DNA of 64,000 nt from Escherichia coli (GTDB taxonomy: Bacteria; Pseudomonadota; Gammaproteobacteria; Enterobacterales; Enterobacteriaceae): the NCBI RefSeq assembly GCF_044324785.1, contig NZ_CP172127.1; one strand, given 5' to 3'. The notes beneath the pieces are model-generated. The model had not been told where the DNA came from. It made no database searches and saw nothing but the letters and a program-made list of their open reading frames with translations. A program made the position numbers and the translations under genes. The first letter of the stretch is position 1, and every line of letters begins with the position of its first letter. Shown here one piece after another: positions 21,193 to 41,632 of the stretch.

Positions 21193-21198
21193 TGATTT

Positions 21199-21221
21199 TG
21201 CCTCGCCCACCGGGCGAGGCA
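21199..21221. terminator. Hairpin between convergent hemL and fhuB
   Basis: gcctcgccc-accg-ggcgaggc at 21200-21220 with weak flanking T/A tracts; the spacer is only 34 bp. Confidence 0.5.
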
Positions 21222-21226
21222 TTCGA

Positions 21227-23209
21227 TTAACGGCTCTGCTTTCTCAACAAATAGATAAAATACGGCGCGCCGATAAAGGTCGACAGCAGCCCCGCTGGGA
21301 TCTGGAATGGAAACAGCACCATCCGCCCACACCAGTCAGCGAACACCAGCAGTAAACCACCCACCAGCGCCGAAATTACGATGTGCGGCATCGTCCGTCG
21401 AAAGCCCATCATCCGCGCAATATGCGGTGCCATTAAACCAACAAAACTCAACGGTCCAATGGTCATTGTCGCGGTCGCCGTCAGGCAAGCCGCTAACAGC
21501 AGCAGCGCAATTCGCGTCGGCGTCAGCGCCATTCCCACGGCTCGTGCGGTATCACCTCCCAGCGGTAAAATGGTCAGCCAGCGGCGGCACAGCGGGGTAA
21601 TCGCCAGCAAAATCACCATCACAATTCCCGTGCGCCAGACCTGCGCATCGGTCGCGTTGTAGGTCGAACCGGAAATCCAGGTCAGAACTTGCGCCATTCG
21701 CGGGTCACCACTTGCCTGCAACATCATCAAAAGCATGGTGAACGCGGTACTTAACGCCATCCCCGCCAGTAACATGCGGTGTGGGGAAAATCCACCGCGT
21801 CCGGCGGCGATCATAATGATCAACAGCGTCACTGCCGCCCCGAGACTTCCCGCGGGTAACAGCCAGCCAAAGGCATTACCCGGCACCAGAAACAGCATTA
21901 ATACCACGCCAAACGCCGCGCCGGAGCTAATCCCCAGCACTTCCGGGCTTGCCATCGGGTTGCCGGTCAGCCGCTGAATAATACAGCCCGCCACCGCCAG
22001 CATGACGCCCGCAAACAGCGCCGCCATAATTCGCGGCCAGCGCCAGGGCATCAAATCCTCGAGCAACGCCCCGCTCGCCCACGTCCAGCCGTGCGCATCA
22101 CGACCAAACGACAGCGCCACCACCACAGCCATCAACAGCAGCACGCCGCCCGCGAGGGCAAACGCCAGCACATGTTGGCGTTCAGCAGCGACACGATCGT
22201 TCACCTTCATATCCGGCGCGCTAATGCTGCGTAAACGCGGCAGCAGCCACAGCAGCAGCGGCGCACCGAGGAGCGCAGTGACCGAACCGGTAGAAACTTC
22301 CATCCACACGCGAGTCAGCCAGAGGATGATTTGATCAGAAAGCCACAGAATTAACGCCCCAATCAGCGACGCCAGCATCAATCGTGGCAACAAACGCCGC
22401 GCCCCCAGCATTTTTGCCAGCAGCGGCGCGAACAACCCGATAAAGCCGATAATCCCCACTGCATTCACCAGCAGCGCACTGATGACTATCGCCAGCGACA
22501 GCGCCGCCAGACGCGCCAGCGACAAGGCCAGACCGAGATTGCGCGCCACGCCATCATCAAGCCCCATCAGGGTTAACGGGCGAAGTAGCAATAATGTCAG
22601 CATCACGCCGCCCAGCAGCTGCGGCCATAAACGCTCAACGCCGCCCCAGTCGGTTTGCGTCAGCGTTCCGGTGCTCCACAGGAACATGCTTTGTAGCTGG
22701 TCGTGATGGAAGATAACCAGTAACTGATTGATTGCTCCGCAATAAAGGCTCACCACCAGCCCCGCGAGGATCAGCGTTACCGGCGACAGCCGTTTCCCCC
22801 ACGCGACGCCAAAGACAATTAAGCCAACAACGCAAGCCCCTGCCAGCGCAGCAAACTGGCTCGCCATAGCACCTGGGATCGCCCAGAGCGTAGTGACGGT
22901 AATCCCCAGTTGCGCGCCTGTTGCAACGCCCAACGTCGTCGGTTCCGCCAGCGGGTTACGCAGCACTTGCTGAAACAGCACACCCACCAGCCCCAGGCCC
23001 GCGCCCACCAGCAGCGAAATCGCCAGACGCGGCAACAAGCTGTAGTGAAAAATCATCTGCTCGATGACATCGATATCCGGCGACCAGGCAGCCTGCGCCC
23101 ACTGGCTACGCGGCAGCGCTTGCGAAAAGTTCATCCAGGTGAGCGCCGCTGCGACAATCACCAGCAGCGCCAGCAATAACGCCGGGAAAAGCGCAATTCG
23201 TTTACTCAC
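21227..23209 (-). CDS. fhuB: ferric hydroxamate ABC transporter permease
   Basis: 660-aa ORF MSKRIALFPALLLALLVIVAAALTWMNFSQALPRSQWAQ...; duplicated FecCD-type permease halves. Confidence 0.97.
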   Translation of the reverse strand: MSKRIALFPALLLALLVIVAAALTWMNFSQALPRSQWAQAAWSPDIDVIEQMIFHYSLLPRLAISLLVGAGLGLVGVLFQQVLRNPLAEPTTLGVATGAQLGITVTTLWAIPGAMASQFAALAGACVVGLIVFGVAWGKRLSPVTLILAGLVVSLYCGAINQLLVIFHHDQLQSMFLWSTGTLTQTDWGGVERLWPQLLGGVMLTLLLLRPLTLMGLDDGVARNLGLALSLARLAALSLAIVISALLVNAVGIIGFIGLFAPLLAKMLGARRLLPRLMLASLIGALILWLSDQIILWLTRVWMEVSTGSVTALLGAPLLLWLLPRLRSISAPDMKVNDRVAAERQHVLAFALAGGVLLLMAVVVALSFGRDAHGWTWASGALLEDLMPWRWPRIMAALFAGVMLAVAGCIIQRLTGNPMASPEVLGISSGAAFGVVLMLFLVPGNAFGWLLPAGSLGAAVTLLIIMIAAGRGGFSPHRMLLAGMALSTAFTMLLMMLQASGDPRMAQVLTWISGSTYNATDAQVWRTGIVMVILLAITPLCRRWLTILPLGGDTARAVGMALTPTRIALLLLAACLTATATMTIGPLSFVGLMAPHIARMMGFRRTMPHIVISALVGGLLLVFADWCGRMVLFPFQIPAGLLSTFIGAPYFIYLLRKQSR

Positions 23210-24096
23210 GCTTTACCTCCGATGGCGTTATCCAGAATACGCACAAAGTGCATTGCCGAAAGCGTCGCGCCATAGAACCAGACCGCCGGAACGCGCTGAA
23301 AACGTCCTGCACGGACAAACGGCATGGCCTGCCACAGCGGGGTTGCCATTAGCGCATCCATGTCTTTGCTGTTGTCGTGATCAAAACAGAGCACATCAAC
23401 GTCTTTATACGCCGCCAGACGATCGATACTGACGGCGGTACTGCCCCAGAAGTTGGTTTCCCCTTGCCAGGCATTTGGGATGCCGTACTCATCAAGAATT
23501 TCCTGGAACAAGCTGTTTGGACCGAAGACCAGCATATGGCGCGGATCGATAAGCGTCGTCAGCAATAACGGGCGTGCACCACGCTTCACAAAGCGGGGTT
23601 TCATGCTGCGGATAAAGTCTTCATATTGCGCTAAATGCGTTTCTGCTGCGCTTTGCAGGTTAAGTAAATCTGCCATTTCCGTCAGTGATTTACGCGCCAT
23701 CACCAGCGGCTGTTTGCCGTCGCTGAAGTTAAATCCGCGCCCCGGCGCAATGCGTGCCAGCATTTCTGGTGAAGGGCCATATCCTGCCGACCAGACCATA
23801 AACGACGGTTTCATTTCGGTCAGCAGTTCAAGGTTAGGTTCTGTACGCAAACCAACGTCAATCACTGAGTCCGGCAATGGCGGTTCGCTGACCCACAGGC
23901 GATAGTTGATGGTATCCGCCACGCCGTAAGGCACGATGCCGAGCGCCAGCAGTAATTCCACCGGCAACCACTCCAGCGCCACAATACGATTGGGATCAAT
24001 AGCCGCCGCGTGGGCGGTATTCATCTGCCATAACAACGGAGAAAGCGCCATCGCCGTTAACAGTCGGCGGCGCGAAATAAGAGGTAAGCCGCTCAT
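23206..24096 (-). CDS. fhuD: ferric hydroxamate periplasmic binding protein
   Basis: ORF track 297 aa beginning MMSGLPLISRRRLLTAMALSPLLWQ...; second Met taken as start (296 aa); overlaps fhuB by 4 bp. Confidence 0.95.
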   Translation of the reverse strand: MSGLPLISRRRLLTAMALSPLLWQMNTAHAAAIDPNRIVALEWLPVELLLALGIVPYGVADTINYRLWVSEPPLPDSVIDVGLRTEPNLELLTEMKPSFMVWSAGYGPSPEMLARIAPGRGFNFSDGKQPLVMARKSLTEMADLLNLQSAAETHLAQYEDFIRSMKPRFVKRGARPLLLTTLIDPRHMLVFGPNSLFQEILDEYGIPNAWQGETNFWGSTAVSIDRLAAYKDVDVLCFDHDNSKDMDALMATPLWQAMPFVRAGRFQRVPAVWFYGATLSAMHFVRILDNAIGGKA

Positions 24097-24893
24097 CAAT
24101 AAACAAAACTCACAGGTGCAGCACCCGCCGGATGCGGCAGAATACCCATCGGGATGCCATAAATCATTTCGAGGGTTTCGCCGCGCATAATTTCCGCAGG
24201 CGTTCCCTGAGCAATCATTTCACCGCCGCGCAGGGCGACCAGATAATCACAGTAACGCGCAGCCATATTGATATCGTGCAGCACGGCAATGACCGTCAGG
24301 CCACGCTCCTGACTTAAACGATGCACCAGCGCCAGCACATCAACCTGGTGGGCGATATCCAGCGCCGAGGTCGGTTCGTCGAGCAACAGACAACGGCTAT
24401 CCTGCGCCACCAGCATGGCGATCCACGCCCGCTGACGTTCGCCGCCAGAGAGACTATCGACCAGCCGATGCGCCAGCGGTTTTAAGCCAACCAGCGAGAT
24501 AGCTTCCTCGACCTTTTCGCGATCTGCCGCACCAAAGCGCCCCAGCGCGCCATGCCACGGGTAACGACCAATCGCCACCAGTTCACGCACCGTCATCCCT
24601 TCTGCCGGAGGAAGCTGCTGCGGCAAATAAGCCACTTTGCGGGCAAACGCTTTGCTGCTCCAGCTTTCCAGCGGTTGGGCATCAAGAAGAATCTCCCCTT
24701 CCGACGGCGGCTGGTGACGACCAAGCATTTTGAGCAGAGTGGATTTACCAGAACCGTTGTGACCAATCAAACCAGTCACTTTCCCGGCAGGAAAGGTTAA
24801 CGACAGCGGATGCAAAAGCGTGCGCCCTGGCACACGAAAGGAGATATTACGCAGTGCAAAAGTGGTATCGGAATGATTCGTGTATTCCTGCAT
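24096..24893 (-). CDS. fhuC: ferric hydroxamate ABC transporter ATP-binding protein
   Basis: ORF track 306 aa; start at internal ATG (MQEYTNHSDTTFALRNISFRVPGRTLLHPLSLTFPAGKVTGLIGHNGSGKST...) gives 265 aa; Walker A and LSGGERQR signature. Confidence 0.95.
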   Translation of the reverse strand: MQEYTNHSDTTFALRNISFRVPGRTLLHPLSLTFPAGKVTGLIGHNGSGKSTLLKMLGRHQPPSEGEILLDAQPLESWSSKAFARKVAYLPQQLPPAEGMTVRELVAIGRYPWHGALGRFGAADREKVEEAISLVGLKPLAHRLVDSLSGGERQRAWIAMLVAQDSRCLLLDEPTSALDIAHQVDVLALVHRLSQERGLTVIAVLHDINMAARYCDYLVALRGGEMIAQGTPAEIMRGETLEMIYGIPMGILPHPAGAAPVSFVY

Positions 24894-24943: not shown

Positions 24944-27133
24944 TTAGAAACGGAAGGTTGCGGTTGCAACGACCTGACGTTCTGCGCCCCAGAAGCAGCC
25001 ATAGGTCTGGAAGCAACTGGCAACATACTCACGATCGAGCAAATTGTTGACGTTCACAGCAAGGCTGGATCCCGCCATACCAAAGCGTGCCAGATCATAT
25101 TTTACAACAGCATCCATTACAGCTGCGCTACCCACTTTAAAAGTGTTCGCCGGATCACCATAGCTGGAACCAATAAAACGACCACCTGTTCCCAATGTTA
25201 AACCAGAAAGCGGCCCTTCATTGAAGGTATAATCCCCCCAGAGAGATGCCATATGCTCCGGTACTTGTTCTGGAGTTTTACCTTTGAGATTGGTGTCTTT
25301 GGTGTATTCCGCATCGGTGTAGGTATAAGAAGCCGTCAAGTTAATATTGGCATTTAACGCCGCTTTTGCTTCAAGTTCCACACCACGAGCGCGAATCTCA
25401 CCTGCCGGGACTTGCGCTAATGGGTTTGTTGGGTCTGCTGTCAGGTTATTTGTTTTCGTCAATTGATAGACTGCGCCCGTAACAACGACCGGCATATCAT
25501 TCGGAACATATTTTACGCCAGCTTCATACTGTTCACCTTTCGATGGCTTATAGGAAACGCGCGGGTTGCTCCACAGATCGAAAGCACTCGGTTCAAAGGA
25601 CTGGCTATAGCTAAAGTAAGGTGAAATACCATTATCGAATAAGTAATTTACACCACCGCGCCAGGTGAACTGATGATCATTGCGCTCAATATAACCTTCA
25701 GTCGGCGTATAAGAGTTTTCACGAACAGTGGTCGCTTGCTTAGACCAATCGTAGCGTCCCCCCAGAGTGAATACCCATTTATTCCATTCCGCCTGATCCT
25801 GAACATAAATACCTGTTTGTTTGCTTTCATTCATCTGGTATGGCTCTGCGCTACCAAATGCAAAGTATTCAGGATGGTATTTGTTATAAAGATCGATGGA
25901 TGGTGCAGATCCAAAGCTGGCATTGATATCATTGCGCATACGCATGAAGTCTACCCCTGTCAGCAAAGTATGCCCGACGTCACCTGTAGCAAACTTACTT
26001 TCAAGCTGGGTATCAACGCTAAAGTTTTGTAGACGCTCATTATCCACCACTGTCCCGCGGTTTAGGGTATGACCATCGCTGGCAATCCCTGTGCCATAAA
26101 CACTTTTCTGTGAGGTTTTCATTTCACTGAAACGCAGATTCTGACGCACGGTGAAGGTGTCATTAAAACCATGTTCAAAACTATATCCCACCATTTTCTG
26201 GTTACGGGAGTATGTATTATTCGATGCACCTTCATTGAAGTCAGTCGGTAGACGCTTACCATTAGGCAATGGCTCAACGGTCCCCTCTTTCGGCAACCAA
26301 CCGTAATAACCCGTTTCTGGTTCGTTCTGAAAATAGGACAGGAAAGTAAAATTGGTTTTGTCGTCTGGACGCCATGAGAATGATGGAGCAATGGTATAAC
26401 GCTGAGATTCAGAGTTTTTCTGCTGTTCGTTTGTTGAGCGTGCGAGGCCAGTCAAACGGTAGGAGAACTCACCGTTATCATCCAGCGCATCACTGAAATC
26501 GAATCCGGTCTGAAACAGATTATCCGTCCCCATTTTAAACTGAATTTCTTTCAGGGGTTCAGTTGTCGGACGCTTACTCACCATAGAAATAATCCCACCA
26601 GGATTACTTTTCCCATAGAGAACAGACGTCGGCCCGCGCATCAGTTCAACCCTCTCGAGCATGTAAGGATCAATCACAGCATCGTTATAAAAGTTGCCCT
26701 GAAGTTTTAGTCCATCAAGGTAATTATTTTGATTCAGACCAACAGATGAGAAACCACGAATGATAACAAAATCATATGTATTAGAAGCACCACGACTGCT
26801 AACCGTAACGCCAGGTGTATAACCTAATGCTTCTTTTACAGACTGAAATTGATGCATCTGCATCTCTTCATTTGTCACAACCGAAATAGACTGCGGCGTT
26901 TTTTCAATTGGTGTATCCGTTTTAGTCGCAGTAGCAGAGTGCTTCGCCGCAATAGTTGCAGCCGGTCCCCATGCGCTTTCTTGCGGCGCAGGTGCAGCGG
27001 TAACGGTGATAGTGTCTTCTTTCGGTTCAACCGCTGCCTGTGCATAAACAGACATGCCGCTAACCGCTGTGGCTACTACAACTGCGATTTTACGCAGTGA
27101 GTGTTTTGGCTGAGCAGTTTTGGAACGCGCCAT
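24944..27133 (-). CDS. fhuA: TonB-dependent ferrichrome outer-membrane receptor; allele 18 aa shorter than K-12 FhuA
   Basis: 729-aa ORF MARSKTAQPKHSLRKIAVVVATAVSGMSVYAQAAVEPKEDTITVTAAPAPQESAWGPAATIAA...; TonB-box-like DTITVTA, C-terminal VATATFRF; K-12 FhuA is 747 aa. Confidence 0.93.
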   Translation of the reverse strand: MARSKTAQPKHSLRKIAVVVATAVSGMSVYAQAAVEPKEDTITVTAAPAPQESAWGPAATIAAKHSATATKTDTPIEKTPQSISVVTNEEMQMHQFQSVKEALGYTPGVTVSSRGASNTYDFVIIRGFSSVGLNQNNYLDGLKLQGNFYNDAVIDPYMLERVELMRGPTSVLYGKSNPGGIISMVSKRPTTEPLKEIQFKMGTDNLFQTGFDFSDALDDNGEFSYRLTGLARSTNEQQKNSESQRYTIAPSFSWRPDDKTNFTFLSYFQNEPETGYYGWLPKEGTVEPLPNGKRLPTDFNEGASNNTYSRNQKMVGYSFEHGFNDTFTVRQNLRFSEMKTSQKSVYGTGIASDGHTLNRGTVVDNERLQNFSVDTQLESKFATGDVGHTLLTGVDFMRMRNDINASFGSAPSIDLYNKYHPEYFAFGSAEPYQMNESKQTGIYVQDQAEWNKWVFTLGGRYDWSKQATTVRENSYTPTEGYIERNDHQFTWRGGVNYLFDNGISPYFSYSQSFEPSAFDLWSNPRVSYKPSKGEQYEAGVKYVPNDMPVVVTGAVYQLTKTNNLTADPTNPLAQVPAGEIRARGVELEAKAALNANINLTASYTYTDAEYTKDTNLKGKTPEQVPEHMASLWGDYTFNEGPLSGLTLGTGGRFIGSSYGDPANTFKVGSAAVMDAVVKYDLARFGMAGSSLAVNVNNLLDREYVASCFQTYGCFWGAERQVVATATFRF

Positions 27134-27352: not shown

Positions 27353-29878
27353 TTAATTACTACCAAACATATCCTTGATCCAACCAGCTACACCGTCGCT
27401 GTCTTTCTGCTCTTGCTGAGCAGGTTGCTGTTGCTGCGGCTGAGAAGACTGATCAAACGGATTGCCTGACGGTTGCTGCTGCATCTCACTCTGCTGGCAC
27501 AGCGATTGCGGATCGCTGGTCCAGACCGGCAAGACACGCATACCACCGCTGCAAACAAAGTTGCCGTCGTAGTCCACGCCCATATCTGCAATATCTTCTG
27601 GCGGAACAAGATTTAGCGGCGTTGGCGTCTGGTTAGCCAGATAACGCTGATAAATCGACATTGCCCCGCTGGCTCCATACAGTTTGGTCGGCTGGTTGTT
27701 ATCACGGCCGACCCAGGTGATGGTCACCGTGCTGCCGTCAATGCCCGCAAACCAGGTATCTACGTTGTTGTTGGTAGTCCCGGTTTTTCCCGCCAGATGC
27801 AGATTTGGATATTTCGCCCCAAGCTGACGCCCCGTACCACGTTGTACCACCTGCTGCATGGTCCATAGTGTCAGATACGCCGCCTGCGCCGGAACAGCGC
27901 GTTCTGCCTGCGGGAAGCTCTGATACAGCACCTTGCCATCTTCCGCGATTACCGAACGCAGCGCAGAAAGCGGAGCACGGTTACCGCCGCTGGCGATGGT
28001 CTGGAATGCCTGCGCCACTTCGATTGGCGTTAAGTTCAACGCCCCCAGCAGCATCGCCGGAACCGGATGCAGCTGATCTTTCGGTACGCCCAGTTTAATC
28101 CAGGTCTCCGTAACCGCAGGCAGCCCCAGCGCCATCCCCAGATTTACCGTCGGCACGTTCATCGAACGGGTCAACGCATCCACCAGCATCACTCTGCCGC
28201 TTTCGCTATAACGACGGTCATCGTTCTGCGGTGACCAGACCTGGCCATTTGGCTGACGCAGCGCGATTGGCGCATCCGCAATCCACGTATTCAGACGATA
28301 GATTTTCGGCTGGCTTAAAGCCGTCAGATAAGTCGCTGGTTTTGCAAGGGAACCAATCGAACGACGCGCCTGCATCGCACGGTTGTAGCCCGCAAACTGC
28401 GGCTCAGAACCACCGACCATCGCACGAACTTCACCGCTAAAGCGGTCAACAACCACAATCGCGGTTTCAAGATCGCTCAACTTACGCTGTTTCTTCAGTG
28501 CCGGAATGCCTTCCACGGCGGCTTTTTCTGCCGCGTCCTGGGCCACCGAGTCAAAGGTAGTGAAGATCTTCACGCCGGAGAGATCTTTTACCTTATCGCC
28601 TAATTTCGCCTGCAGCTCCTGACGCACCAGTTGCATAAAGGCTGGCTGAGGAGAGATCACCCCACCGCGCGGCTGAACACCCAGCGGACGTGCACTCAAC
28701 ATATCATAGAGTTCTTGATCAATAATCTGTTGCTGTTGCAGCAAACGTAGCACCAGGTTACGTCGCTCCAGCGCCAGTTTCGGGTTACGCCACGGGTTGT
28801 AGATGGACGCCCCTTTAACCATACCCACCAACAGCGCCTGCTGATCGAGGCTCAATTCTTCTACCGGACGACCAAAGTAATACAAGCTCGCCAGCGGGAA
28901 GCCGCGGATTTCGTTGTCGCCGCTCTGACCGAGATACACCTCGTTCATATACAGCTCAAGAATACGGTCTTTGCTGTAACGCGCGTCCATGATCAGCGCC
29001 ATGTAAGCTTCGTTCGCTTTACGCCAGTAAGAGCGCTCGCTGGAGAGGAACAGGTTTTTCACCAGCTGTTGCGTCAGCGTACTCGCACCCTGCACCGTGC
29101 GTCCGGCGGTCAGGTTTGCCAGCACCGCACGCCCAATTGAGTAGAGGCTGATCCCATCATGTTCGTAGAAATGACGGTCTTCTGTCGCCAGCAAAGTATC
29201 CACCAGCAAATCCGGGAAACCACTGCGCGGCACAAACAGACGCTGCTCACCGTTTGGCGAAGAGATCATGGTGATCAGACGCGGATCAAGACGGAAGAAA
29301 CCGAACTGACGGTTGTTCTCCATATTGACGATCGTCGCCAGATGATCGCCATCAAAGGTCAGACGTGCACGCACCTGCCCTTCTTTACTGTCCGGGAAAT
29401 CAAACGGACGGCGGATCATCTCAATGCTGTTGGCCTGCACGGTAAATTCGCCGGGACGGGTCATTTTCGACACCTGACGATACTGGGTCGCCTCCAGCAG
29501 CTTCACCATCTCGTTCTTGCTGATGGTCATGTCTGGCTCAAGGTTGACCATCCGGCCATAAACTGCCGCGGGCAGTTGCCAGACCTTACCATCAATACGG
29601 CTGCGAATTTTTTGATCGAGATAAACGCCGTAAATGGCGATCAGCACGGCAAAAACGATAGCCAGTTTTAGCAGCAGCCATAGCCAGCCGCGTTTGCCAC
29701 GAGGCTTACGCCCTTTGCCTTTGCCCTTACCTTTGCGCGGCATCGGTTCTTCATCCTCATAGTCATCATAATCGTCGTAATCATCGTCATCTTCGTAACG
29801 ACGACGGCTTACCTTTTGTTTGACCGGACGCGTCGGTTTCCCTTTGCGTCCAATTGGCTCGCGGTCATTCCCGGCCAT
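27353..29878 (-). CDS. mrcB: penicillin-binding protein 1B (bifunctional glycosyltransferase/transpeptidase)
   Basis: ORF track 846 aa; start at [20 protein letters not shown]... gives 844 aa; acidic [15 protein letters not shown] and basic [17 protein letters not shown]-terminal tracts. Confidence 0.96.
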
Positions 29879-29971
29879 GCTTTTTCTCCGCAATATTCAG
29901 GCGCAAAAGCCCGATTTTCTGTTCTTCTGTTGCAAGACAGAAGAAGATATCTCTCAAATTTACTTTGATCT

Positions 29972-32401
29972 TCACGAATACTTTTTCGTTCGTCGCGTTG
30001 GTGCTGTGTTTGCCGGGTCGTCCGGCCAGACATGTTTGGGATAACGCCCTTTCATCTCTTTTTGCACCTCACGGTACGCTCCTTTCCAGAAGGCGCTCAA
30101 ATCACGCGTGATTTGCAGCGGCCTTTGGGCAGGGGAAAGCAACTCCAGCACCAGCGGCACGCGCCCCTGAGCGATCGTCGGATTGGTGGCCTCACCAAAC
30201 ATCTCCTGCATTCTCACCGCCAGCGCGGGCGGGTTATCTTCATGATAACGAATGGCGATCCGGCTTCCCGTCGGCACAGTGTAATGCGCAGGCAATTCAC
30301 TATCCAGACGTTGCTGCATTCCCCAATCAAGTAATCCGCGTAGTGCCTGATAAATGTCGAGTGATTTCAGGCCGCGTAGTGAATGCACGCCGCTCATATG
30401 CGGCAGTAGCCACGTTTCCAGCGTCGCCAACAAACTCTCATCATCAACCGCTGGCCAGTCATATTCCGGCAACCACTTTGCGGCGCATAACAAACGCAAG
30501 CGTAGCTGTTCCGCTTCCGCCGTCCAGTTGAGCACGCTTAAACCTTTATCACGAATGCCGTTAAGCATCGCCTGATGCAACTCGTCTTCCGAGGGTTTCG
30601 CCAGCGGCTGCACTTTCACCGTCAACTGACCGATTTGCAGCCGACGCCAGGCTTTCAGCGTACCTTGCGCGTCATCCCACTCCACAGTGTCAGACTGCTG
30701 TACCAGCTGCGGACAGCGTTGTACTAACTCATCAATATCGACCGGCAGCGCCAGTAAAATCCGTGCATCCGGCGAGGCGCTGCCCTGCAATAATAACGGT
30801 GCGATCAACCATTCGTGGCGGCTTAGCGCATCGTCGGCATCGAGCATCGCCCCCATGCCGTTTGCCAGTTGATAGCGTCCATCTTGCCCACGGCGACGAG
30901 CAATGCGATCGGCATACGCCCCGGCAAGTAGCGGCGCGATAAGCGAACTGTCTGCCTCACCGCCGCGTACGTTTAAACGTTTTAACAGTTGCTGACTACG
31001 TTGCTGCCAGGCGGGTTGATTGCGCGAAAATGCCACGCCCAGGTCACAATTGCCCATCCGTGGCGGCTCTTCGAGAATAGCGGCAATTTTTGCCGCGGTA
31101 GCAGCTTCGTCGTCGCTCTTCGCGCTCACCAGCATTGCCGCTAAACGCGGATCGTTACCCAGCGCCGCCATTTTTTGCCCTTGCGCGCTTAGCCGTTCGC
31201 CATCCAGCGCTCCCAGCATCCGTAACAGGCGTTTCGCGGCCTGTAAATTCACTGCTGGCGGTTGATCCAGCCAGCTCATCTGCGCCGGATCGCTGCATCC
31301 CCATTGCAGTAATTCCATCAGCAAACCGGAAAGATCGCTTTGTAAGATCTCCGGTTCACTTTGCGCGGCAGCGCGTTCTGCTTGTTCTTTGGCGATTAAA
31401 TGCAGGCAGATACCCGGCTCCAGACGCCCGGCGCGCCCGGCACGCTGCGTCATGGATGCCTGACTAACGCGTTGAGTAATCAACCGCGTAAGCCCCGTGC
31501 GCGGATCAAAACGCGCCACACGCTCCTGGGCACAATCCACCACCAGACGAATACCTTCGATGGTTAAACTTGTTTCAGCAATATTGGTCGCCAGCACCAC
31601 TTTGCGCATTCCTTGCGGTGCCGGAAGGATCGCTTTTCGCTGATCGTTCAGCGACAACGCGCCATACAGCGGGCAGAGCAACACATCACTGCCGATGCGC
31701 GAAGCCAGTTGTTCCTGCACGCGCTGAATTTCTCCGACGCCAGGTAAAAATAACAGTAATGATCCGCTTTCCTGACGCAGCATTTCGGCGGTGGCTACCG
31801 CAACGGCTTCGTCAAAACGCTGATGCGCGGGCAGCGGTAAATAACGGCGTTCAACCGGAAACGAGCGCCCTTCTGAGATGACGACGGGCGCTTCTGGCAG
31901 CATTTGCTGCAAGCTGTCGTTGTCCAGCGTAGCCGACATAATCAGCAGTTTAAGGTCATCACGCAGACCTTGTTGCACATCGAGTAACAGCGCCAACGCC
32001 AAATCCGCCTGCAAGCTGCGCTCATGAAATTCATCAAGGATCACCAATCCAACACCGCTCAGTTCCGGGTCACGCTGGATCATGCGCGTCAGCACGCCTT
32101 CGGTAACCACTTCCAGGCGGGTATTCGGCCCGACGCAGTTTTGCGCACGCATCCGGTAGCCAACGGTATCGCCTGGCTTTTCGTTAAGCAGCTCCGCCAG
32201 TCGTTGCGCAACGTTACGCGCCGCCAAACGACGCGGCTCCAACAGGATAATTTTCCCGTTAATGCCGGGATGCGCCAGCAGTTGCAGCGGCAGCCAGGTT
32301 GATTTCCCGGCCCCGGTCGGCGCACTTAATAACACCTGCGATGCACAATCGAGAGCGGTAAGTAATTCAGGTAAGACGGCAGCAACGGGCAACGACGACA
32401 C
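29972..32401 (-). CDS. hrpB: ATP-dependent RNA helicase HrpB (DEAH box)
   Basis: ORF track 824 aa from ATG at 32446; K-12 length (809 aa) and a 73-bp spacer to thpR correspond to the GTG at 32399-32401; Walker A SAPTGAGKST and DEFHER motifs. Confidence 0.9.
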   Translation of the reverse strand: MSSLPVAAVLPELLTALDCASQVLLSAPTGAGKSTWLPLQLLAHPGINGKIILLEPRRLAARNVAQRLAELLNEKPGDTVGYRMRAQNCVGPNTRLEVVTEGVLTRMIQRDPELSGVGLVILDEFHERSLQADLALALLLDVQQGLRDDLKLLIMSATLDNDSLQQMLPEAPVVISEGRSFPVERRYLPLPAHQRFDEAVAVATAEMLRQESGSLLLFLPGVGEIQRVQEQLASRIGSDVLLCPLYGALSLNDQRKAILPAPQGMRKVVLATNIAETSLTIEGIRLVVDCAQERVARFDPRTGLTRLITQRVSQASMTQRAGRAGRLEPGICLHLIAKEQAERAAAQSEPEILQSDLSGLLMELLQWGCSDPAQMSWLDQPPAVNLQAAKRLLRMLGALDGERLSAQGQKMAALGNDPRLAAMLVSAKSDDEAATAAKIAAILEEPPRMGNCDLGVAFSRNQPAWQQRSQQLLKRLNVRGGEADSSLIAPLLAGAYADRIARRRGQDGRYQLANGMGAMLDADDALSRHEWLIAPLLLQGSASPDARILLALPVDIDELVQRCPQLVQQSDTVEWDDAQGTLKAWRRLQIGQLTVKVQPLAKPSEDELHQAMLNGIRDKGLSVLNWTAEAEQLRLRLLCAAKWLPEYDWPAVDDESLLATLETWLLPHMSGVHSLRGLKSLDIYQALRGLLDWGMQQRLDSELPAHYTVPTGSRIAIRYHEDNPPALAVRMQEMFGEATNPTIAQGRVPLVLELLSPAQRPLQITRDLSAFWKGAYREVQKEMKGRYPKHVWPDDPANTAPTRRTKKYS

Positions 32402-37253: not shown

Positions 37254-37600
37254 TTTAATGATTTCATGAATATAAATAAATTCCGAAAAATAACCTTACC
37301 CATTGCAATTAATATATTCCCTAAGCTACAACCATAATTAATATTATATACCCCGCTAACACCTTCTACCTCACATACAATATTTCTTCCGCTTTGTACA
37401 TTAAGCTTTACTTAAAGATGAATTAAGTGGATATATAAATTTAAATATGCACAATATCCCACTTGGTGATGAACAGATGTTACATTCAGTAAATCTTCAC
37501 ATTCATCATTAACAAACCAATCTATTTTTCTCTATCGGGGTTCTTTGTCTGAAAGTACCCGATCGTAGTTAAACTCATGGAATATGATTCAAGGATTATT
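37254..37600 (+). promoter_or_regulatory. AT-rich upstream regulatory region of the fimbrial operon
   Basis: About 350 bp of strongly AT-rich sequence with direct repeats (ataaataaat and ttcatgaat each occur twice, 37221-37282), typical of H-NS-silenced chaperone-usher promoters; no specific promoter elements assigned. Confidence 0.4.
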
Positions 37601-38173
37601 ATGTCTAAAAAATTAGGTTTTGCCCTGTCTGGTCTAATGCTGGCAATGGTTGCAGGTACTGCTTCTGCTGATATGGACGGTGGTCAGATTAACATCAGTG
37701 GCTTGGTTAGCGATAACACCTGTGAAACAAAAGTTGATGGCGGCAAGCAAGATGGCCTGGTTCTTCTGCAAACTGCAACGGTTGCTGAAATTACCGCTGG
37801 TGTATCTGAAACTGCTGTCGGCGCCAAAGCGAAACCGTTTAGCATTACTGTAGACTGCAGCAAAGCGACTCCGGGAGGCCAACCGACTCTGACATTCGGT
37901 TCAGTCTTCTTTGGTAACAGTCGTGGCACTTTGAATAACGATATGTCCATCACCACCCCGTCATCTGGTGTGAATATCGCCCTGCACAACATTGACGGCA
38001 CCACGGTTAAACAAGTCAAAATTAATAATGCATCTGATGCTTACACTAAAGCATTAACCAATAATGTTGCAGTCTTTGACTTCAAAGCCTCCTATGTTCG
38101 TGAAGACAACTCAACACCAGCAACGGCTGGTTATGTAAGAACCAACACAGCTTACACCATCACCTACAATTAA
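37601..38173 (+). CDS. yadN: fimbrial major subunit (YadN-type pilin)
   Basis: ORF track 198 aa; start at ATG 37601 ([23 protein letters not shown], signal peptide) preceded by AAGGA; C-terminal beta-strand motif TAYTITYN. Confidence 0.85.
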
Positions 38174-38265
38174 GTTATTCGTTGGTGATTTAAATTACTA
38201 CAAGGGTGCGACACCTATTGTCGCCCCCTTGTCTTGAAAACAATTCATGTCATGGATGGTATATT

Positions 38266-38997
38266 TTGTTAAATAAAAAGAATATTGTCGCATTATGTGT
38301 TGTCAGTAGTATGGCATTTAGTATGCCTGTTATGGCCGATATTGTTATTTCCGGTACACGCGTCATTTATAAAAGTGATCAAAAAAGCGTTAGCGTACGC
38401 CTGGAGAATAAAGGCAATAGCCACCTGTTAGTACAAAGCTGGCTGGATACCGGTGACGATAACGCTGAGCCAGGAAGCATTAATGTACCATTTACGGCAA
38501 CACCTCCCGTTTCACGTATTGATGCTAAACGCGGTCAAACCATCAAATTGATGTATACCGGCAGTACCGTACTCCCCAGCGATAAAGAAAGCGTATTCTG
38601 GTTTAACGTGCTGGAAGTGCCCCCAAAACCAGATGCTACAAAAGTGGAGAATCAGAGCCTGTTACAACTGGCTTTCCGTACCCGTATCAAGCTGTTCTAT
38701 CGTCCGGCAGGATTAAACGGTAACCCGTCTGAAGCACCATTAGCCCTGAAATGGAAATGGGCTGAAGGGAAGTCTGGCCTGAGTGTATATAACCCAACAC
38801 CTTATTACGTCTCTTTCAACAGCGCAGAGTTAATCGCTGGCGGTAAGTCGAACCCGCTCAACGTAAAAATGATTGCACCGAAAAGCGAAGAGATTTTCAC
38901 CATAAGCGGTTCAGGCGGGAAAGCAACGTCAGGAAAGGTACATTTCTCAGCGATCAATGATTTTGGCGGCGCAATTGAAGGCGATGTCAATTTGTAA
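38266..38997 (+). CDS. yadV: periplasmic fimbrial chaperone (PapD-like, EcpD/YadV-type)
   Basis: ORF track starts at GTG 38206; a TTG at 38266 gives LLNKKNIVALCVVSSMAFSMPVMA signal followed by DIVISGTRVIYKSDQKSVSVRLENKG (PapD-like pilus chaperone N-domain); exact start uncertain. Confidence 0.8.
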   Translation: MLNKKNIVALCVVSSMAFSMPVMADIVISGTRVIYKSDQKSVSVRLENKGNSHLLVQSWLDTGDDNAEPGSINVPFTATPPVSRIDAKRGQTIKLMYTGSTVLPSDKESVFWFNVLEVPPKPDATKVENQSLLQLAFRTRIKLFYRPAGLNGNPSEAPLALKWKWAEGKSGLSVYNPTPYYVSFNSAELIAGGKSNPLNVKMIAPKSEEIFTISGSGGKATSGKVHFSAINDFGGAIEGDVNL

Positions 38998-39031
38998 GAC
39001 CAGGGACCTTATGCAGCAGGAAGCCAATGTA

Positions 39032-41632
39032 ATGAAAACAACGACATCGACTAAACGCCATAATCTTACGCGTATCGCAATGTATTGCTCAATTATGTAT
39101 AGCGGCGCTACCATCGGAGCCGAAAGCGTTGAGTATGACCCTACCTTTTTAATGGGTGGCAACGCTTCCAGTATTGATGTTAGCCGCTATAGCGATGGCA
39201 ACCCGACTTTGCCTGGTGTTTACGATGTTAGCATCTATGTTAACGAGCAACCTGTTGCTAACCTGGAGATCCCCTTTATCGCGATCCCCGAAAAAAAGAA
39301 TGCTCAAGCCTGTATTACCCTGAAAAATCTACTACAACTTCATATCAAGCCCCCCCCGGCAGACGAGGAAAATACTATCCTTCTTCCACGGGATGAAACG
39401 CTTGGCAACTGTCTTGACCTGTCGTTAGCCATACCTAAATCCTCAGTGAGCTATGACCCCTCTGAACAACGTCTGGATATCAATGTTCCCCAGGCGTGGG
39501 TGATGAAGAATTATCAAAACTATGTGGACCCATCACTTTGGGAAAATGGCATTAACGCGGCTACGCTGTCTTATAACATCAACGCTTATCGCAGTGAAAA
39601 TTCAAATTATACAAATGATAGCGTTTATACATCGTTCAATGGTGGCGTCAATTTAGGTGCCTGGCGTCTGCGTAGCAGCGGTAACTATAGCTGGAGAAAC
39701 GACGCGGGAAGCAATGTTGAGTTTATGAATCGCTACGTCCAGCGCGACATTACCGCTATTCGCTCGCAGCTCATTATGGGGGAATCCTACACCACAGGTG
39801 AAACGTTCGATTCCGTTAGTATCCGCGGCATTCGCTTATACAGCGATAGCCGAATGCTGCCGCCAGTATTGGCAAACTTCGCCCCAACAATTCGTGGTGT
39901 AGCGAATACCAACGCCAAAGTCAGCATTACCCAGGGTGGATACAAAATTTATGAAACCACTGTTCCACCGGGACCTTTTGTCATTGATGATCTCAGTCCG
40001 TCAGGGTATGGCAGCGATCTTATCGTAACCATTGAAGAAGCTGATGGCAGCAAGCGTACATTTTCTCAGCCATTTTCTTCAGTAATTCAAATGCTGCGCC
40101 CGGGTGTTTCTCGCTGGGATATCAGCGGCGGGCAAATTAATAAAGACGACTTGCATCATGAACCAAACTTACTACAAGCGACCTATTACCGTGGTTTAAG
40201 TAACCTGTTCACTGGCTATACTGGTTTTCAGGTCACAGATAATCATTATGCTGCAGGCTTACTTGGCATTGGGATGAATACTTCTGTCGGCGCAATTTCC
40301 TTCGATGTCACCCACTCCAGTGTCGATATACCGGATGATAAAAGGTACCAGGGGCAAAGCTATCGCATCTCCTGGAACAAATTTTTTGACCTGACAGATA
40401 CATCATTAAACATCGCGGCTTACCGCTACTCCACGCAGGACTATCTGGGCCTGAATGATGCATTAACACTTATTGATGAAGTTGAACATCCCACTCAGGA
40501 TCTTGATCCCAAAACTATGCGCAACTACGGGCGCATGAAAAACCAGTTCACCGTAAGCATTAACCAACCGCTACGCTTTGGGAAGGATGATTATGGCTCG
40601 TTCTATACCTCTGGAAGCTGGTCTGATTACTGGGGGGGCGGTAAGAGCCGTAGCAACTATTCGGTCGGCTACAGTAACAGCGCTTCATGGGGAAGCTACA
40701 GTATCAGCGCTCAACGATCCTGGGATGAGTACAGCCAAACAGAAAACAGTATTTACCTCAGCTTTTCGATACCTATCGAAAAACTGATGGGTACGGAGCA
40801 CCGTGATTCCGGTTTCCAAAGTATTGATACACAACTTAGTACCAATATGGATGGTAATAATCAGTTCAACATGAGCAGTAGCGGTTATAGCAACGATAAT
40901 CGCGTGAGCTATAGCGTGAACGCGGGTTATGGGATGAATAAAACCGGCAAAGATCTCAGCAACATCGGGGGTTATGCCAGCTATGAATCGCCATGGGGAA
41001 CGCTAGCTGGGTCAGTCTCTGCTACCAGCGATAATAACCGCCAGTACTCCGTTAATACAGATGGTGGATTTGTGTTGCACAGCGGAGGACTTACGTTCAG
41101 CAACGACAGTTTCAGTGATAATGACACCATTGCTCTGGTTAAAGCACCGGGTGCAAAAGGGGCGCGTATTAACTACGGCAACAATACCGTTGACCGTTGG
41201 GGATATGGCGTAACCAGTGCTCTTTCACCATACCAGGAAAACAAAATTGCTCTGGACACTGAAAACCTGGAAAACGACATCGAAATGAAGAGCACCAGTA
41301 CAGTTGCCGTACCACGCCAGGGCTCGGTTATCTTTGCTGGTTTTGAAACCAATCAGGGACAATCTGCGATTATGAATATCAAACGCAGTGACGGAAAAGG
41401 TATCCCCTTCGCCGCCGATATTCATGATGAAACAAATGCAATCATTGGCAACGTTGGGCAGGGCGGGCAGGCATTTGTTCGCGGTATTCAGCAGCAGGGC
41501 ACGATAAAAATCACCTGGCTGGAAGCCAGCATGCCCAAAACCTGTATTGCGCAGTACCAGCAACCCAATGTGACATCGGAGAAAATCCAGCAAACGATTA
41601 TTCTCAATAATATTCTTTGCCAGCTCCAATAA
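39032..41632 (+). CDS. htrE: outer-membrane fimbrial usher (HtrE/YadU-type)
   Basis: ORF track 891 aa from 38957; start at ATG 39032 (MKTTTSTKRHNLTRIAMYCSIMYSGATIGAESVEYDPTFLMG) follows the chaperone stop and has AGGAAG upstream; 866 aa. Confidence 0.88.
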   Translation: MKTTTSTKRHNLTRIAMYCSIMYSGATIGAESVEYDPTFLMGGNASSIDVSRYSDGNPTLPGVYDVSIYVNEQPVANLEIPFIAIPEKKNAQACITLKNLLQLHIKPPPADEENTILLPRDETLGNCLDLSLAIPKSSVSYDPSEQRLDINVPQAWVMKNYQNYVDPSLWENGINAATLSYNINAYRSENSNYTNDSVYTSFNGGVNLGAWRLRSSGNYSWRNDAGSNVEFMNRYVQRDITAIRSQLIMGESYTTGETFDSVSIRGIRLYSDSRMLPPVLANFAPTIRGVANTNAKVSITQGGYKIYETTVPPGPFVIDDLSPSGYGSDLIVTIEEADGSKRTFSQPFSSVIQMLRPGVSRWDISGGQINKDDLHHEPNLLQATYYRGLSNLFTGYTGFQVTDNHYAAGLLGIGMNTSVGAISFDVTHSSVDIPDDKRYQGQSYRISWNKFFDLTDTSLNIAAYRYSTQDYLGLNDALTLIDEVEHPTQDLDPKTMRNYGRMKNQFTVSINQPLRFGKDDYGSFYTSGSWSDYWGGGKSRSNYSVGYSNSASWGSYSISAQRSWDEYSQTENSIYLSFSIPIEKLMGTEHRDSGFQSIDTQLSTNMDGNNQFNMSSSGYSNDNRVSYSVNAGYGMNKTGKDLSNIGGYASYESPWGTLAGSVSATSDNNRQYSVNTDGGFVLHSGGLTFSNDSFSDNDTIALVKAPGAKGARINYGNNTVDRWGYGVTSALSPYQENKIALDTENLENDIEMKSTSTVAVPRQGSVIFAGFETNQGQSAIMNIKRSDGKGIPFAADIHDETNAIIGNVGQGGQAFVRGIQQQGTIKITWLEASMPKTCIAQYQQPNVTSEKIQQTIILNNILCQLQ

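Follow-up and report, generated by a model that had tools for sequence, protein, structure and literature searches.

A minority fhuA allele class with a Salmonella-like core in an otherwise ordinary Escherichia coli fhuACDB locus

Introduction

The allele class of the outer-membrane receptor FhuA sets the entry of the phages T1, T5 and phi80, of SO1-like and ES18-like phages, and of colicin M, microcin J25 and albomycin. A 64,000-nucleotide stretch of DNA from an Escherichia coli chromosome (contig NZ_CP172127.1), referred to here as the window, contains a fhuA gene whose product is shorter than that of strain K-12, next to transporter genes of ordinary appearance. How did this receptor come to differ from its K-12 counterpart, and does the length difference describe the change adequately? 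The original prediction, made from the sequence of the window, regarded the gene as an allele 18 aa shorter than that of K-12 and ascribed it to a process limited to the receptor, either diversifying selection or recombination. We conclude with considerable confidence that the window is E. coli chromosome and that its fhuA belongs to E3, a known minority class of alleles, whose core was placed in the locus by recombination; the assignment to E3 follows the published feature description of this cluster and not a match to a listed E3 strain. The allele class and its pattern are already published. The locus is a clean textbook case of receptor-confined allelic replacement, and it adds little to the published work.

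Results

The fhuA gene and its neighbors

The fhuA gene is located at positions 24944..27133 on the minus strand of the window. It is an intact open reading frame with an ATG start, 729 codons and a stop, encodes a ferrichrome TonB-dependent outer-membrane transporter, and is flanked by mrcB and fhuCDB. The K-12 MG1655 gene comprises 2244 nt and encodes 747 aa, of which 559 (75%) are identical in the alignment with the window protein. The open reading frame and the alignment thus confirm the predicted lengths of 729 and 747 aa. The NCBIfam equivalog model NF007465, "ferrichrome porin FhuA", matches residues 1-729 of the window protein over profile positions 1-726 of 726 with 1409.2 bits (cut-off 803). 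FoxA is the next family; its score of 592 bits does not reach the cut-off of 1300 set for that family. Over their whole length, residues 34-729 align with the solved chains 8A60, 8A8C and 1BY3 (E-value 0), and this alignment gives the protein the architecture of an N-terminal plug and a 22-strand beta-barrel. The domains PF07715 and PF00593 are present in its close homologues. Public databases already list an identical protein under E. coli FhuA, with occurrences on at least 1000 contigs.

The genes lie in the order hemL-fhuB-fhuD-fhuC-fhuA-mrcB-hrpB, as in K-12, and fhuA is the first gene of fhuACDB. The genes encoding the inner-membrane hydroxamate ABC transporter, fhuC, fhuD and fhuB (21227..24893, minus strand), are typical of E. 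coli. As had been predicted, they have the K-12 lengths: fhuC (24096-24893), fhuD (23206-24096) and fhuB (21227-23209), all on the minus strand, align with K-12 without gaps and with 90-100% identity per 100-nt bin. Exactly the same three lengths are found in the best-matching annotated E. coli genome. The FhuC protein (265 aa) is 100% identical to that of K-12. The upstream flank, mrcB (27353..29878, minus strand), is also typical of E. coli, with 2.8% nucleotide divergence from K-12 and a protein that is ~100% identical.

A divergent block inside fhuA

Divergence from K-12 steps from 0-3% to ~29% at fhuA nt 168/190 and falls back at nt 2127/2130. These steps delimit a divergent allelic block, the E3-class core, at 25004..26966 on the minus strand (fhuA nt 168-2130, codons ~57-710). 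It takes in the greater part of the plug and, in the barrel, everything from strand 1 to a point within loop L11. Mismatches to K-12 were counted at 561 of the 1911 aligned block positions (29.4%), at none of the 167 positions of the fhuA 5′ end, and at 2.7-2.8% of the positions in mrcB and fhuCD. The synonymous sites of the block are saturated (pS 0.77) and its dN is 0.19, compared with a dS of 0.07-0.12 in the flanks. Outside the block, the remainder of fhuA and its neighboring genes match K-12 at 96-100% identity. The difference between the window and K-12 is far beyond chance.

Both junctions lie within the gene. The conserved 5′ end of fhuA (26967..27133, minus strand; nt 1-167), which contains the signal peptide, the TonB box and the start of the plug, includes the upstream junction and has 0 mismatches to K-12. 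The first 63 residues of the two proteins are identical, including EDTITVTA, where EDTITV marks the TonB-box region known from K-12 FhuA. The downstream junction lies in the conserved 3′ end (24944..25003, minus strand), which consists of the last 19 codons and the stop and encodes the end of L11 and strand 22. No mismatch to K-12 is present within the reading frame 3′ of nt 2130, and the last 19 residues are identical. Across the family, the conservation of the fhuA ends is only modest (p = 0.17-0.23, against 0.25-0.37 for the core), and dedicated recombination anchor sequences at the ends are therefore not claimed.

Surface loops and ligand contacts

The difference of 18 aa is the net result of six indel sites (−17, −2, −6, +5, +1 and +1). 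The predicted net length was right, but it understated the change, which comprises these six sites in a protein that is 75% identical. Every indel falls in one of the extracellular loops L4-L7 or in a strand immediately next to L5 or L6. The loops were assigned from the strand pattern of an AlphaFold2 model from residue 246 on, which agrees with the published K-12 loop bounds; the model itself, built from a 73-sequence alignment, is poor (pLDDT 54.5, residues 1-252 below 50, plug unmodelled). The K-12 bounds used were mature residues 318-339 for L4, 394-419 for L5 and Glu501-Ser516 for EL7.

Loop L4 (26069..26083; this and the following loops are on the minus strand) is truncated by 17 residues, with ASD--GH replacing the K-12 sequence CSDPANAYSKQCAALAPADKGH. 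Cys318 is changed to Ala, Tyr325 and Cys329 are absent, and the Cys318-Cys329 disulfide is gone. Loop L5 (25844..25891) is rewritten and shortened, with 2 residues lost in the loop and 6 in the next strand, and is identical to K-12 in 6 of 18 columns. Loop L6 (25688..25723) is longer by 5 residues (TEGYI). Loop L7 (25544..25591) is rewritten, gains 2 residues and retains 3 identical columns out of 16. At the tip of loop L8 (25415..25435), DPTNPLA replaces the K-12 sequence DPEGSFF (D552-F558), with the loss of Phe557 and Phe558. L3 and L10, both gapless, are identical to K-12 at 30 of 31 and 14 of 15 positions, respectively. The TonB box, the plug apices, L3, L10 and L11 are kept. Identity to K-12 amounts to 100% in the signal peptide, 80% in the periplasmic turns and 60% in the loops. 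The mapping thus places the indels at L4-L7, so that the differences are not limited to the signal peptide or the periplasmic turns, and the protein is not near-identical to that of K-12. The ferrichrome contacts reported in the 1998 crystal structures are R81, G99, Q100, F115, Y116, Y244, W246, Y313, Y315 and F391. Eight of these ten residues are the same as in K-12, and the two changes are Q100L and Y315T.

Distribution within E. coli

The block was divided into a 5′, a middle and a 3′ third, and each was queried separately in 5426 complete E. coli genomes. Each third was present with at least 95% identity in 562 genomes (10.4%), with equal counts for the three, and no partial mosaics of the block were found among the 5426 genomes. 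A further 85 genomes fell into a band of 80-90% identity. Since none of them has the block thirds at 95% identity or more, they are probably partial alignments to the conserved parts of other classes.

The carriers of the block belong to several lineages and include strain HS, APEC O78, an ST38 isolate, O169:H41 and non-B4 ST410. HS and APEC O78 show zero differences in the core and differ by 1.4-2% in the flanks. In both of them the block spans nt 190-2127. Compared with this HS/APEC O78 block, that of the window differs at 32 of 1938 nt and in 4 residues; by codon, 32 of the differences from HS are synonymous and 4 are non-synonymous. The window has additional Salmonella-like sites at nt 168, 171 and 2130, and its block is ~22 nt longer at the 5′ side and 3 nt longer at the 3′ side. 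The window allele belongs to a 99.8% sub-lineage of the class together with the ST38 isolate. The diversity of the class inside E. coli is 1.65-2.8%.

Relationship to Salmonella and other genera

The best protein match of the window FhuA is the FhuA of Salmonella enterica, which is also 729 aa long and is 95% identical. Identity to the proteins of K-12, E. whittamii and other Escherichia is 73-75%. In average-linkage clustering the window FhuA shares a class with S. enterica. The nucleotide sequences of the two blocks are only 76-84% identical per 150-nt bin, with a dN of 0.029 and saturated synonymous sites. The NG86 pS between the window and Salmonella is higher in the block (0.815) than in the flanking genes (0.55).

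FhuA falls into at least three large classes that are dispersed over the genera, while mrcB and fhuC track taxonomy. The mosaic of conserved flanks and diverged core is also seen between S. enterica and S. arizonae and in pairs within Citrobacter, Kluyvera and Trabulsiella, where the junctions lie near nt 100-250 and nt 2080-2170. The other Escherichia sampled, E. whittamii and two Escherichia sp., have the K-12 class with flank-like divergence. The third-position distance of the core was compared with that of fhuC in 80 enterobacterial loci, and no inter-genus pair had a core markedly closer than its flanks, as a recent donor would. The window core differs from its class relatives of other genera at 0.49-0.56 of third positions, which is the level found between classes. 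No close donor at the nucleotide level was present among the best 80 loci, which were drawn from 100,044 species representatives.

The composition of the block also differs from that of its surroundings. Its GC content is 43-47%, compared with 53-63% in the flanks, and the GC3 of the core is 0.42, compared with 0.58-0.70 in the flanks, 0.55 in the core of K-12, 0.57 in S. enterica and 0.50-0.68 in the relatives with the closest proteins. In the set of 74 loci analysed, GC3 is lowest in the E. coli E3 cores. The GC3 of K-12-class cores tracks the host, whereas that of the window-class core lies below its host. This low GC3 is anomalous, and simple long residence in E. coli does not account for it.

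Discussion

Origin of the allele

The window allele is not a K-12 gene with a deleted loop; nearly the whole coding core, plug and barrel together with the loops, has been replaced. We propose that homologous recombination put a ~1.96-kb core of a deeply diverged FhuA lineage into the ordinary mrcB-fhuACDB locus. The crossovers would have taken place in the conserved ends of fhuA, before nt 168-190 on the 5′ side and after nt 2127-2130 on the 3′ side. The lineage of the core is also represented in S. enterica serovars such as Typhimurium, and the core appears to move between E. coli lineages as a single cassette.

The shorter protein could instead be read as the product of a K-12-type fhuA with an in-frame deletion of 18 codons, selected for example by T1 or T5, and some point mutations. 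The largest indel does remove 17 residues from L4, the classical phage-binding "gating loop", but the six indel sites include gains as well as losses, and 1.96 kb of sequence with plug and membrane strands is ~29% diverged between flanks without comparable divergence. Moreover, the protein has much more in common with Salmonella FhuA (95% identity) than with K-12 FhuA (75%). The saturated synonymous divergence already refutes the deletion, to which we attach practically no weight. It is also highly improbable that the gene is a decaying or non-functional receptor gene whose loss of function was selected by phages. Receptor-loss variants exist: the annotation of one E3-type fhuA records a frameshift, and the K-12-class fhuA of Escherichia sp. 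MOD1-EC7003 contains an in-frame stop. However, the fhuA reading frame in the window is unbroken over its full length, its product reaches 1409 bits with the FhuA equivalog model and is present on at least 1000 contigs, and both the dN of 0.029 against saturated dS to Salmonella and the 32 versus 4 codon differences to HS speak against decay. The pseudogene reading was rejected on account of the intact reading frame and the purifying selection. An origin of the window outside E. coli was also rejected.

The source of the core is a separate matter. A recent horizontal transfer from S. enterica or another sampled genus would agree with the top protein match, at 95% identity and an equal length of 729 aa, and with Wang et al. 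2018 (10.1101/320069), who took the shortness of the protein branches as a sign that exchange was recent and followed speciation. At the nucleotide level the signs of such a transfer are missing: the per-bin identity to S. enterica is only 76-84%, pS in the block exceeds that of the flanks, third positions differ from all class relatives of other genera as much as between classes, and in no sampled inter-genus pair is the core clearly closer than the flanks. The class has also already diversified by 1.65-2.8% in E. coli. A recent transfer from Salmonella was rejected on the nucleotide identity and the lack of a core closer than its flanks, and we hold recent transfer from any sampled genus to be very unlikely. 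An import from an unsampled enterobacterial lineage of lower GC, old enough to have diversified in E. coli and not ameliorated, is possible, although we rather doubt it. It would fit the core GC3 of 0.42, the lowest of the 74 loci, the deviation of the window-class core from its host where K-12-class cores track theirs, and the K-12 class with flank-like divergence in E. whittamii and the two Escherichia sp. On the other side, no donor appeared in the 80 best loci from the 100,044 species representatives, and the low GC3 could have arisen in situ if the minority allele undergoes little recombination. Such an import is a variant of the preferred explanation, from which it differs only in the source of the allele; the counterpart is a vertically inherited polymorphism of the Escherichia-Salmonella ancestor.

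Returning to the recombinational replacement by an E3 core, we tentatively suggest, at somewhat less than even confidence, that the sharing between E3 and the Salmonella cluster S2 is not due to recent exchange. The core in E. coli, with synonymous sites that are saturated relative to all sampled relatives, would represent an ancient lineage of foreign composition that persists as an indivisible 1.96-kb cassette in ~10% of E. coli, either a trans-species balanced polymorphism that drifted AT-ward or the contribution of an undiscovered low-GC donor. In the balanced-polymorphism version, the minority allele would drift AT-ward because it recombines rarely. If true, the reading as an old lineage contradicts the recent post-speciation exchange suggested in the literature.

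Function and selection

The window FhuA is most likely still a working ferrichrome/TonB transporter, because the TonB box, the plug apices, L3, L10, L11 and eight of the ten contacts are kept and the class is under purifying selection. Given Q100L and Y315T, its substrate affinity may be altered. The outer surface is changed in L4, L5, L6, L7 and L8, and the docking of K-12-specific ligands is therefore predicted to be lost. The features of a K-12-type phage and microcin receptor, namely the L8 tip D552-F558 and a full-length L4 with the disulfide and Tyr325, are absent. Judged by these sequence features, the protein should no longer serve as a receptor for the ligands that dock at L4, L5 and L8, which are T1, T5, phi80, SO1-like phages and microcin J25. 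Salmonella-type FhuA was reportedly found by Killmann and co-workers in 1998 to be resistant to T1, T5 and phi80. Of the 27 hydrogen bonds formed by the T5 receptor-binding protein pb5, 23 go to EL4, EL5 and EL8, and deletion of the L8 tip D552-F558 makes K-12 resistant to T5 and SO1-like phages. For microcin J25, natural resistance in Salmonella has been put down to its divergent FhuA, and natural resistance in E. coli has been linked to "fhuA sequence divergence". The window protein may be a target for phages that are adapted to FhuA of the Salmonella type; according to a paper citing Casjens 2005, Salmonella FhuA is the receptor of phage ES18.

Selection within the allele class is purifying, with a dN of 0.029 relative to Salmonella and 32 versus 4 codon differences to HS. 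Therefore, any diversifying selection acts on the choice among old alleles and not through ongoing point mutation. Of the two processes originally predicted for the receptor, recombination is borne out by the jump from 0-3% to ~29% inside fhuA between typical mrcB and fhuCDB, while diversifying selection does not hold within the class. Long-term frequency-dependent selection by phages and bacteriocins, acting on old alleles, is the best explanation for a class of ~10% that coexists with the K-12 class and for the coexistence of these classes in other genera, as far as the pattern alone can indicate. About one in ten E. coli, in ST38, ST410, APEC O78 and commensal HS backgrounds, has the Salmonella-like E3 surface. 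The frequency of E3 matters for predicting host range in phage therapy, for antibiotics that depend on FhuA, such as albomycin, and for vaccines based on FhuA.

Comparison with known FhuA alleles

The cluster E3 described by Wang, Chen, Hu, Zhu, White and Koster (2018, Infect Immun 86:e00573-18; preprint 10.1101/320069) differs from E1 (K-12) by a shorter L4 and L5 and a longer L6 and L7. The four loops correspond to their Indel 3, Indel 4, Indel 5 and Indel 6, respectively, and E3 groups with Salmonella S2 and not with other E. coli FhuA. The fhuA of the window shares with E3 the shorter L4 and L5, the longer L6 and L7, the lack of insertions in L3 and L10, the grouping with S2 and the conserved fhuCDB genes beside the receptor gene. 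Feng et al. 2019 (PMC6715731) described WP_000124383.1 as an alternative FhuA allele swapped by recombination in ST410. HS and APEC O78, which carry this protein, share the block of the window, whose allele belongs to a sub-lineage of the class with a longer block. The Typhimurium-type FhuA of S. enterica (S2) resembles the window protein in its 729 aa, its 95% identity, its loop architecture and its locus, but differs in nucleotide sequence (76-84%), at saturated synonymous sites and in GC3 (0.57 versus 0.42). On account of these differences it is regarded as a relative distant in time and not as a recent donor. K-12 FhuA (E1; 1BY3, 2FCP, 8A8C) has in common with the window FhuA the fold family, the locus, the signal peptide, the TonB box, L3, L10 and L11 and most of the ferrichrome contacts. 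It differs in overall sequence (75% identity), in L4-L8, in the disulfide and at residues 100 and 315. Chen et al. 2022 (PMC12175518) reported "mosaic evolution" of fhuA, ompC, ompF, ompA and lamB of E. coli. The fhuA of the window is similar to these genes in the conflict between gene and species trees, the small number of loop types and the confinement of recombination to the gene. Their model stresses local recombination of short hypervariable regions, whereas the E3 core of the window is one unit of ~1.96 kb.

The fhuA locus

The fhuA gene is located at positions 24944–27133 of the window on the minus strand and comprises an ATG-started open reading frame of 729 codons, versus 747 aa for the product of K-12 MG1655 fhuA. 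The order of the genes hemL, fhuB, fhuD, fhuC, fhuA, mrcB and hrpB is collinear with K-12. The genes fhuB (21227–23209), fhuD (23206–24096) and fhuC (24096–24893) were aligned to K-12 with no gaps, and the product of fhuC shares 100% identity with its K-12 counterpart. Thus, the original prediction of an fhuA allele 18 aa shorter than in K-12, adjacent to conserved fhuC, fhuD and fhuB genes of K-12 length, is correct; only the minus strand has to be added. The window protein scores 1409 bits against the NCBIfam FhuA equivalog profile (cut-off 803), and its alignment with solved structures of FhuA runs from end to end. Public databases already list the exact sequence as FhuA of E. coli, from at least 1000 contigs; outside E. 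coli, the best relative is Salmonella enterica FhuA, which also has 729 aa and is 95% identical. The 90%-identity protein cluster of the window FhuA (P0001) also lists 265-aa FhuC proteins, an evident clustering artefact of the database.

Further length differences to K-12 were observed around the locus. The hrpB–mrcB intergenic region (about 29900–30000) is shorter by about 100 nt and the fhuB–hemL region (about 21194–21226) by about 120 nt, probably because REP-type repeats are absent. Near its 3′ end (about 27411–27502), mrcB differs in length from K-12 by 9 nt, in frame.

Distribution of the differences in the FhuA protein

The window and K-12 proteins have 559 of 747 residues in common. 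In our protein alignment the difference of 18 aa is the net result of six indel sites: deletions of 17, 2 and 6 residues at mature positions 321–337, 406–407 and 420–425, an insertion of 5 residues after position 469, and single-residue insertions at about positions 504 and 512. To assign the loops, we used the pattern of strands in an AlphaFold model, from residue 246 onwards only and with low overall model confidence; the resulting limits agree with the published K-12 loop boundaries. Every indel lies within one of the extracellular loops L4 to L7 or in a strand immediately next to L5 or L6. The differences are therefore neither restricted to the signal peptide and periplasmic turns nor compatible with near-identity to K-12.

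The signal peptide is 100% identical to K-12, followed by the plug (82%), the periplasmic turns (80%), the barrel strands (74%) and the extracellular loops taken together (60%). Within the loops, L3 (30/31 residues identical), L10 (14/15) and L11 (18/19) are nearly unchanged. Only 4 of 22 residues are identical in L4, where 17 residues are deleted, 6 of 18 in the shortened L5, 2 of 9 in L6, which has gained 5 residues, and 3 of 16 in L7, which has gained 2. The L8 tip retains 2 of 7 residues, DPEGSFF being replaced by DPTNPLA. In L4, Ala stands in place of Cys318 and Cys329 is deleted, so that the disulfide loop is lost; Tyr325 is deleted as well. Eight of the ten residues that contact ferrichrome in the 1998 crystal structures are kept, the changes being Q100 to Leu and Y315 to Thr.

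A sharply delimited divergent block

In a 100-nt sliding comparison, most of mrcB is 96–100% identical to K-12, and so are the promoter region and roughly the first 170 nt of fhuA. Identity then falls abruptly to 52–84%, with 32% in the bin across the L4 deletion, and abruptly regains 96–100% about 60 nt ahead of the stop codon, a level kept through fhuCDB. At base resolution the divergent block, or core, extends from nt 168 to nt 2130 of fhuA (window 26966 down to 25004, minus strand). In the E. coli strains HS and APEC O78, whose fhuA belongs to the same allele class, the block spans nt 190 to nt 2127; the three additional sites of the window (nt 168, 171 and 2130) agree with the Salmonella sequence. 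The block differs from K-12 at 561 of 1911 positions (29.4%), compared with 0/167 (0%) in the 5′ end of fhuA (nt 1–167), 69/2461 (2.8%) in mrcB and 47/1770 (2.7%) in the fhuA 3′ end together with fhuCD. Nei–Gojobori estimates against K-12 gave a saturated pS of 0.77 and a dN of 0.19 for the block, a dS of 0.12 and a dN of about 0.001 for mrcB, and a dS of 0.07 and a dN of about 0.002 for fhuC. Recombination confined to the receptor, as proposed originally, is supported: the divergence begins and ends inside fhuA, between K-12-like flanks.

The window contains another sharply divergent allele block of a surface structure, the fimbrial genes yadN/yadV (about 37565–39414), which are only 70.6% identical to K-12 with neighbours at 96–99%. 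An allele replacement of yadC has also been noted in ST410 (Feng et al. 2019, PMC6715731).

The middle of the fhuA block is present at 95% identity or more in 562 of 5426 complete E. coli genomes (10.4%; megablast). Its 5′ and 3′ thirds, queried separately, gave 562 genomes each, and no partial mosaics were found among the 5426 genomes. These equal counts indicate that the block travels as a single unit. Its carriers include HS, APEC O78, an isolate labelled ST38, an O169:H41 strain and most ST410 strains (Feng et al. 2019). The cores of HS and APEC O78 are identical, although their flanks differ by 1.4–2%, and the window differs from HS by 1.65% in the core and 2.8–4.7% in the flanks; the core has thus moved between backgrounds. 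Of the codons that differ between window and HS, 32 are synonymous and 4 non-synonymous, which implies purifying selection within the allele class.

FhuA classes in other genera and the origin of the core

For comparison across genera, the genomes of bacterial species were scanned, one per species. Over the best 80 loci, FhuA is between 64% and 99% identical to that of the window, while the flanking MrcB and FhuC are ~80–100% identical and follow taxonomy. FhuA clusters into three large and several small classes, each scattered over genera: four were found in Citrobacter, three each in Kosakonia and Buttiauxella, and two each in Kluyvera, Trabulsiella, Salmonella and Escherichia. The K-12 class occurs in E. 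whittamii, two other Escherichia species and S. enterica subsp. arizonae; S. enterica subsp. enterica in the sample has the class of the window. Pairs from the same genus with different classes repeat the anatomy of the window, with flanks mostly 83–100% and cores roughly 50–80% identical, lower in bins across indels, and junctions near nt 100–250 and nt 2080–2170. Such swapped cores are seen between species or subspecies of Salmonella, Citrobacter, Kluyvera and Trabulsiella (locus pairs L003/L026, L008/L037, L012/L079 and L014/L084). One record, titled Chryseobacterium sp. 18061 (L070), shows a typical enterobacterial mrcB–fhuACDB locus, whose MrcB and FhuC are 85% and 94% identical to those of the window, respectively; the assembly looks mislabelled or contaminated.

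The block shares 76–84% nucleotide identity per 150-nt bin with Salmonella, which resembles the E. coli–Salmonella identity of the flanks, whereas the identity between K-12 and Salmonella falls to 62–83%. Against Salmonella the pS of the core is saturated (0.815) with a dN of only 0.029; the synonymous divergence of mrcB and fhuC is 0.55. Third-position differences between the window core and class relatives from other genera amount to 0.49–0.56, no lower than between classes, and among the sampled enterobacterial loci no pair from different genera was found in which the core is clearly closer than the flanks. These data exclude a recent transfer from any of the sampled genera. In its composition, the core is foreign. 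Its GC content is 43–47% against 53–63% in the surroundings, and its GC3 of 0.42, compared with 0.58–0.70 in the window flanks (fhuC, mrcB, fhuB), 0.55 in the K-12 core and 0.57 in the Salmonella core, is the lowest among 74 enterobacterial fhuA loci analysed. In K-12-class cores, GC3 tracks that of the host. A nucleotide-level donor was not found among the sampled loci. The core may represent either an old polymorphism, with AT-ward drift of the minority allele, or an import from an unsampled lineage of lower GC.

Likely function and ligands

The window FhuA is probably a working ferrichrome transporter, given that its TonB box, plug apices, L3 and L11 are conserved and that the allele is of high frequency and under strong purifying selection. 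Judged from its sequence, the surface used by K-12-specific ligands is altered. Killmann et al. reportedly found in 1998 that two of the gating-loop subdomains that bind phages are missing from S. Typhimurium FhuA, and that this receptor gives no sensitivity to T1, T5 and phi80. In the T5 receptor-binding protein pb5, 23 of 27 hydrogen bonds go to the FhuA loops EL4, EL5 and EL8, and T5 and SO1-like phages no longer infect once the L8 tip (D552–F558) is deleted. The specificity of T1 and phi80 involves L4, L5 and L8 (summarised in Wang et al. 2018, 10.1101/320069). In Salmonella serovars, natural resistance to microcin J25 has been ascribed to differences in the FhuA sequence, and in E. coli isolates such resistance is associated with "fhuA sequence divergence". 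For phage ES18, Salmonella FhuA is reported to serve as the receptor.

Receptor-loss variants are present in both the K-12 class and the class of the window: a K-12-class fhuA with an in-frame stop in Escherichia sp. MOD1-EC7003 (L031:3501–5741), and an E3-type gene (see below) of only 1517 nt, with a frameshift according to its annotation, in E. coli Br_112_kylling (L089:3068–4584).

Comparison with published alleles

Wang et al. 2018 described an fhuA tree in conflict with the species tree and the fhuCDB trees, with four FhuA clusters in E. coli (E1–E4) and two in Salmonella (S1, S2), E3 clustering with S2. The signature described for E3, with L4 and L5 shorter and L6 and L7 longer than in E1 (K-12), is exactly that of the window allele. 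Feng et al. 2019 reported allelic replacement of fhuA via recombination in ST410 and an alternative allele, WP_000124383.1, less than 74% identical to the other type at the nucleotide level; this is the FhuA protein of HS and APEC O78. Later work counts fhuA with the outer-membrane protein genes of E. coli that undergo "mosaic evolution" (PMC12175518). The window fhuA is thus a member of a published allele class, and the finding is already known. The additions made here are modest: the exact junctions in the window, the 10.4% frequency of an indivisible block, the same mosaic in several further genera, and the saturated synonymous divergence with low GC3, which speak against a "recent exchange" reading for E3/S2.
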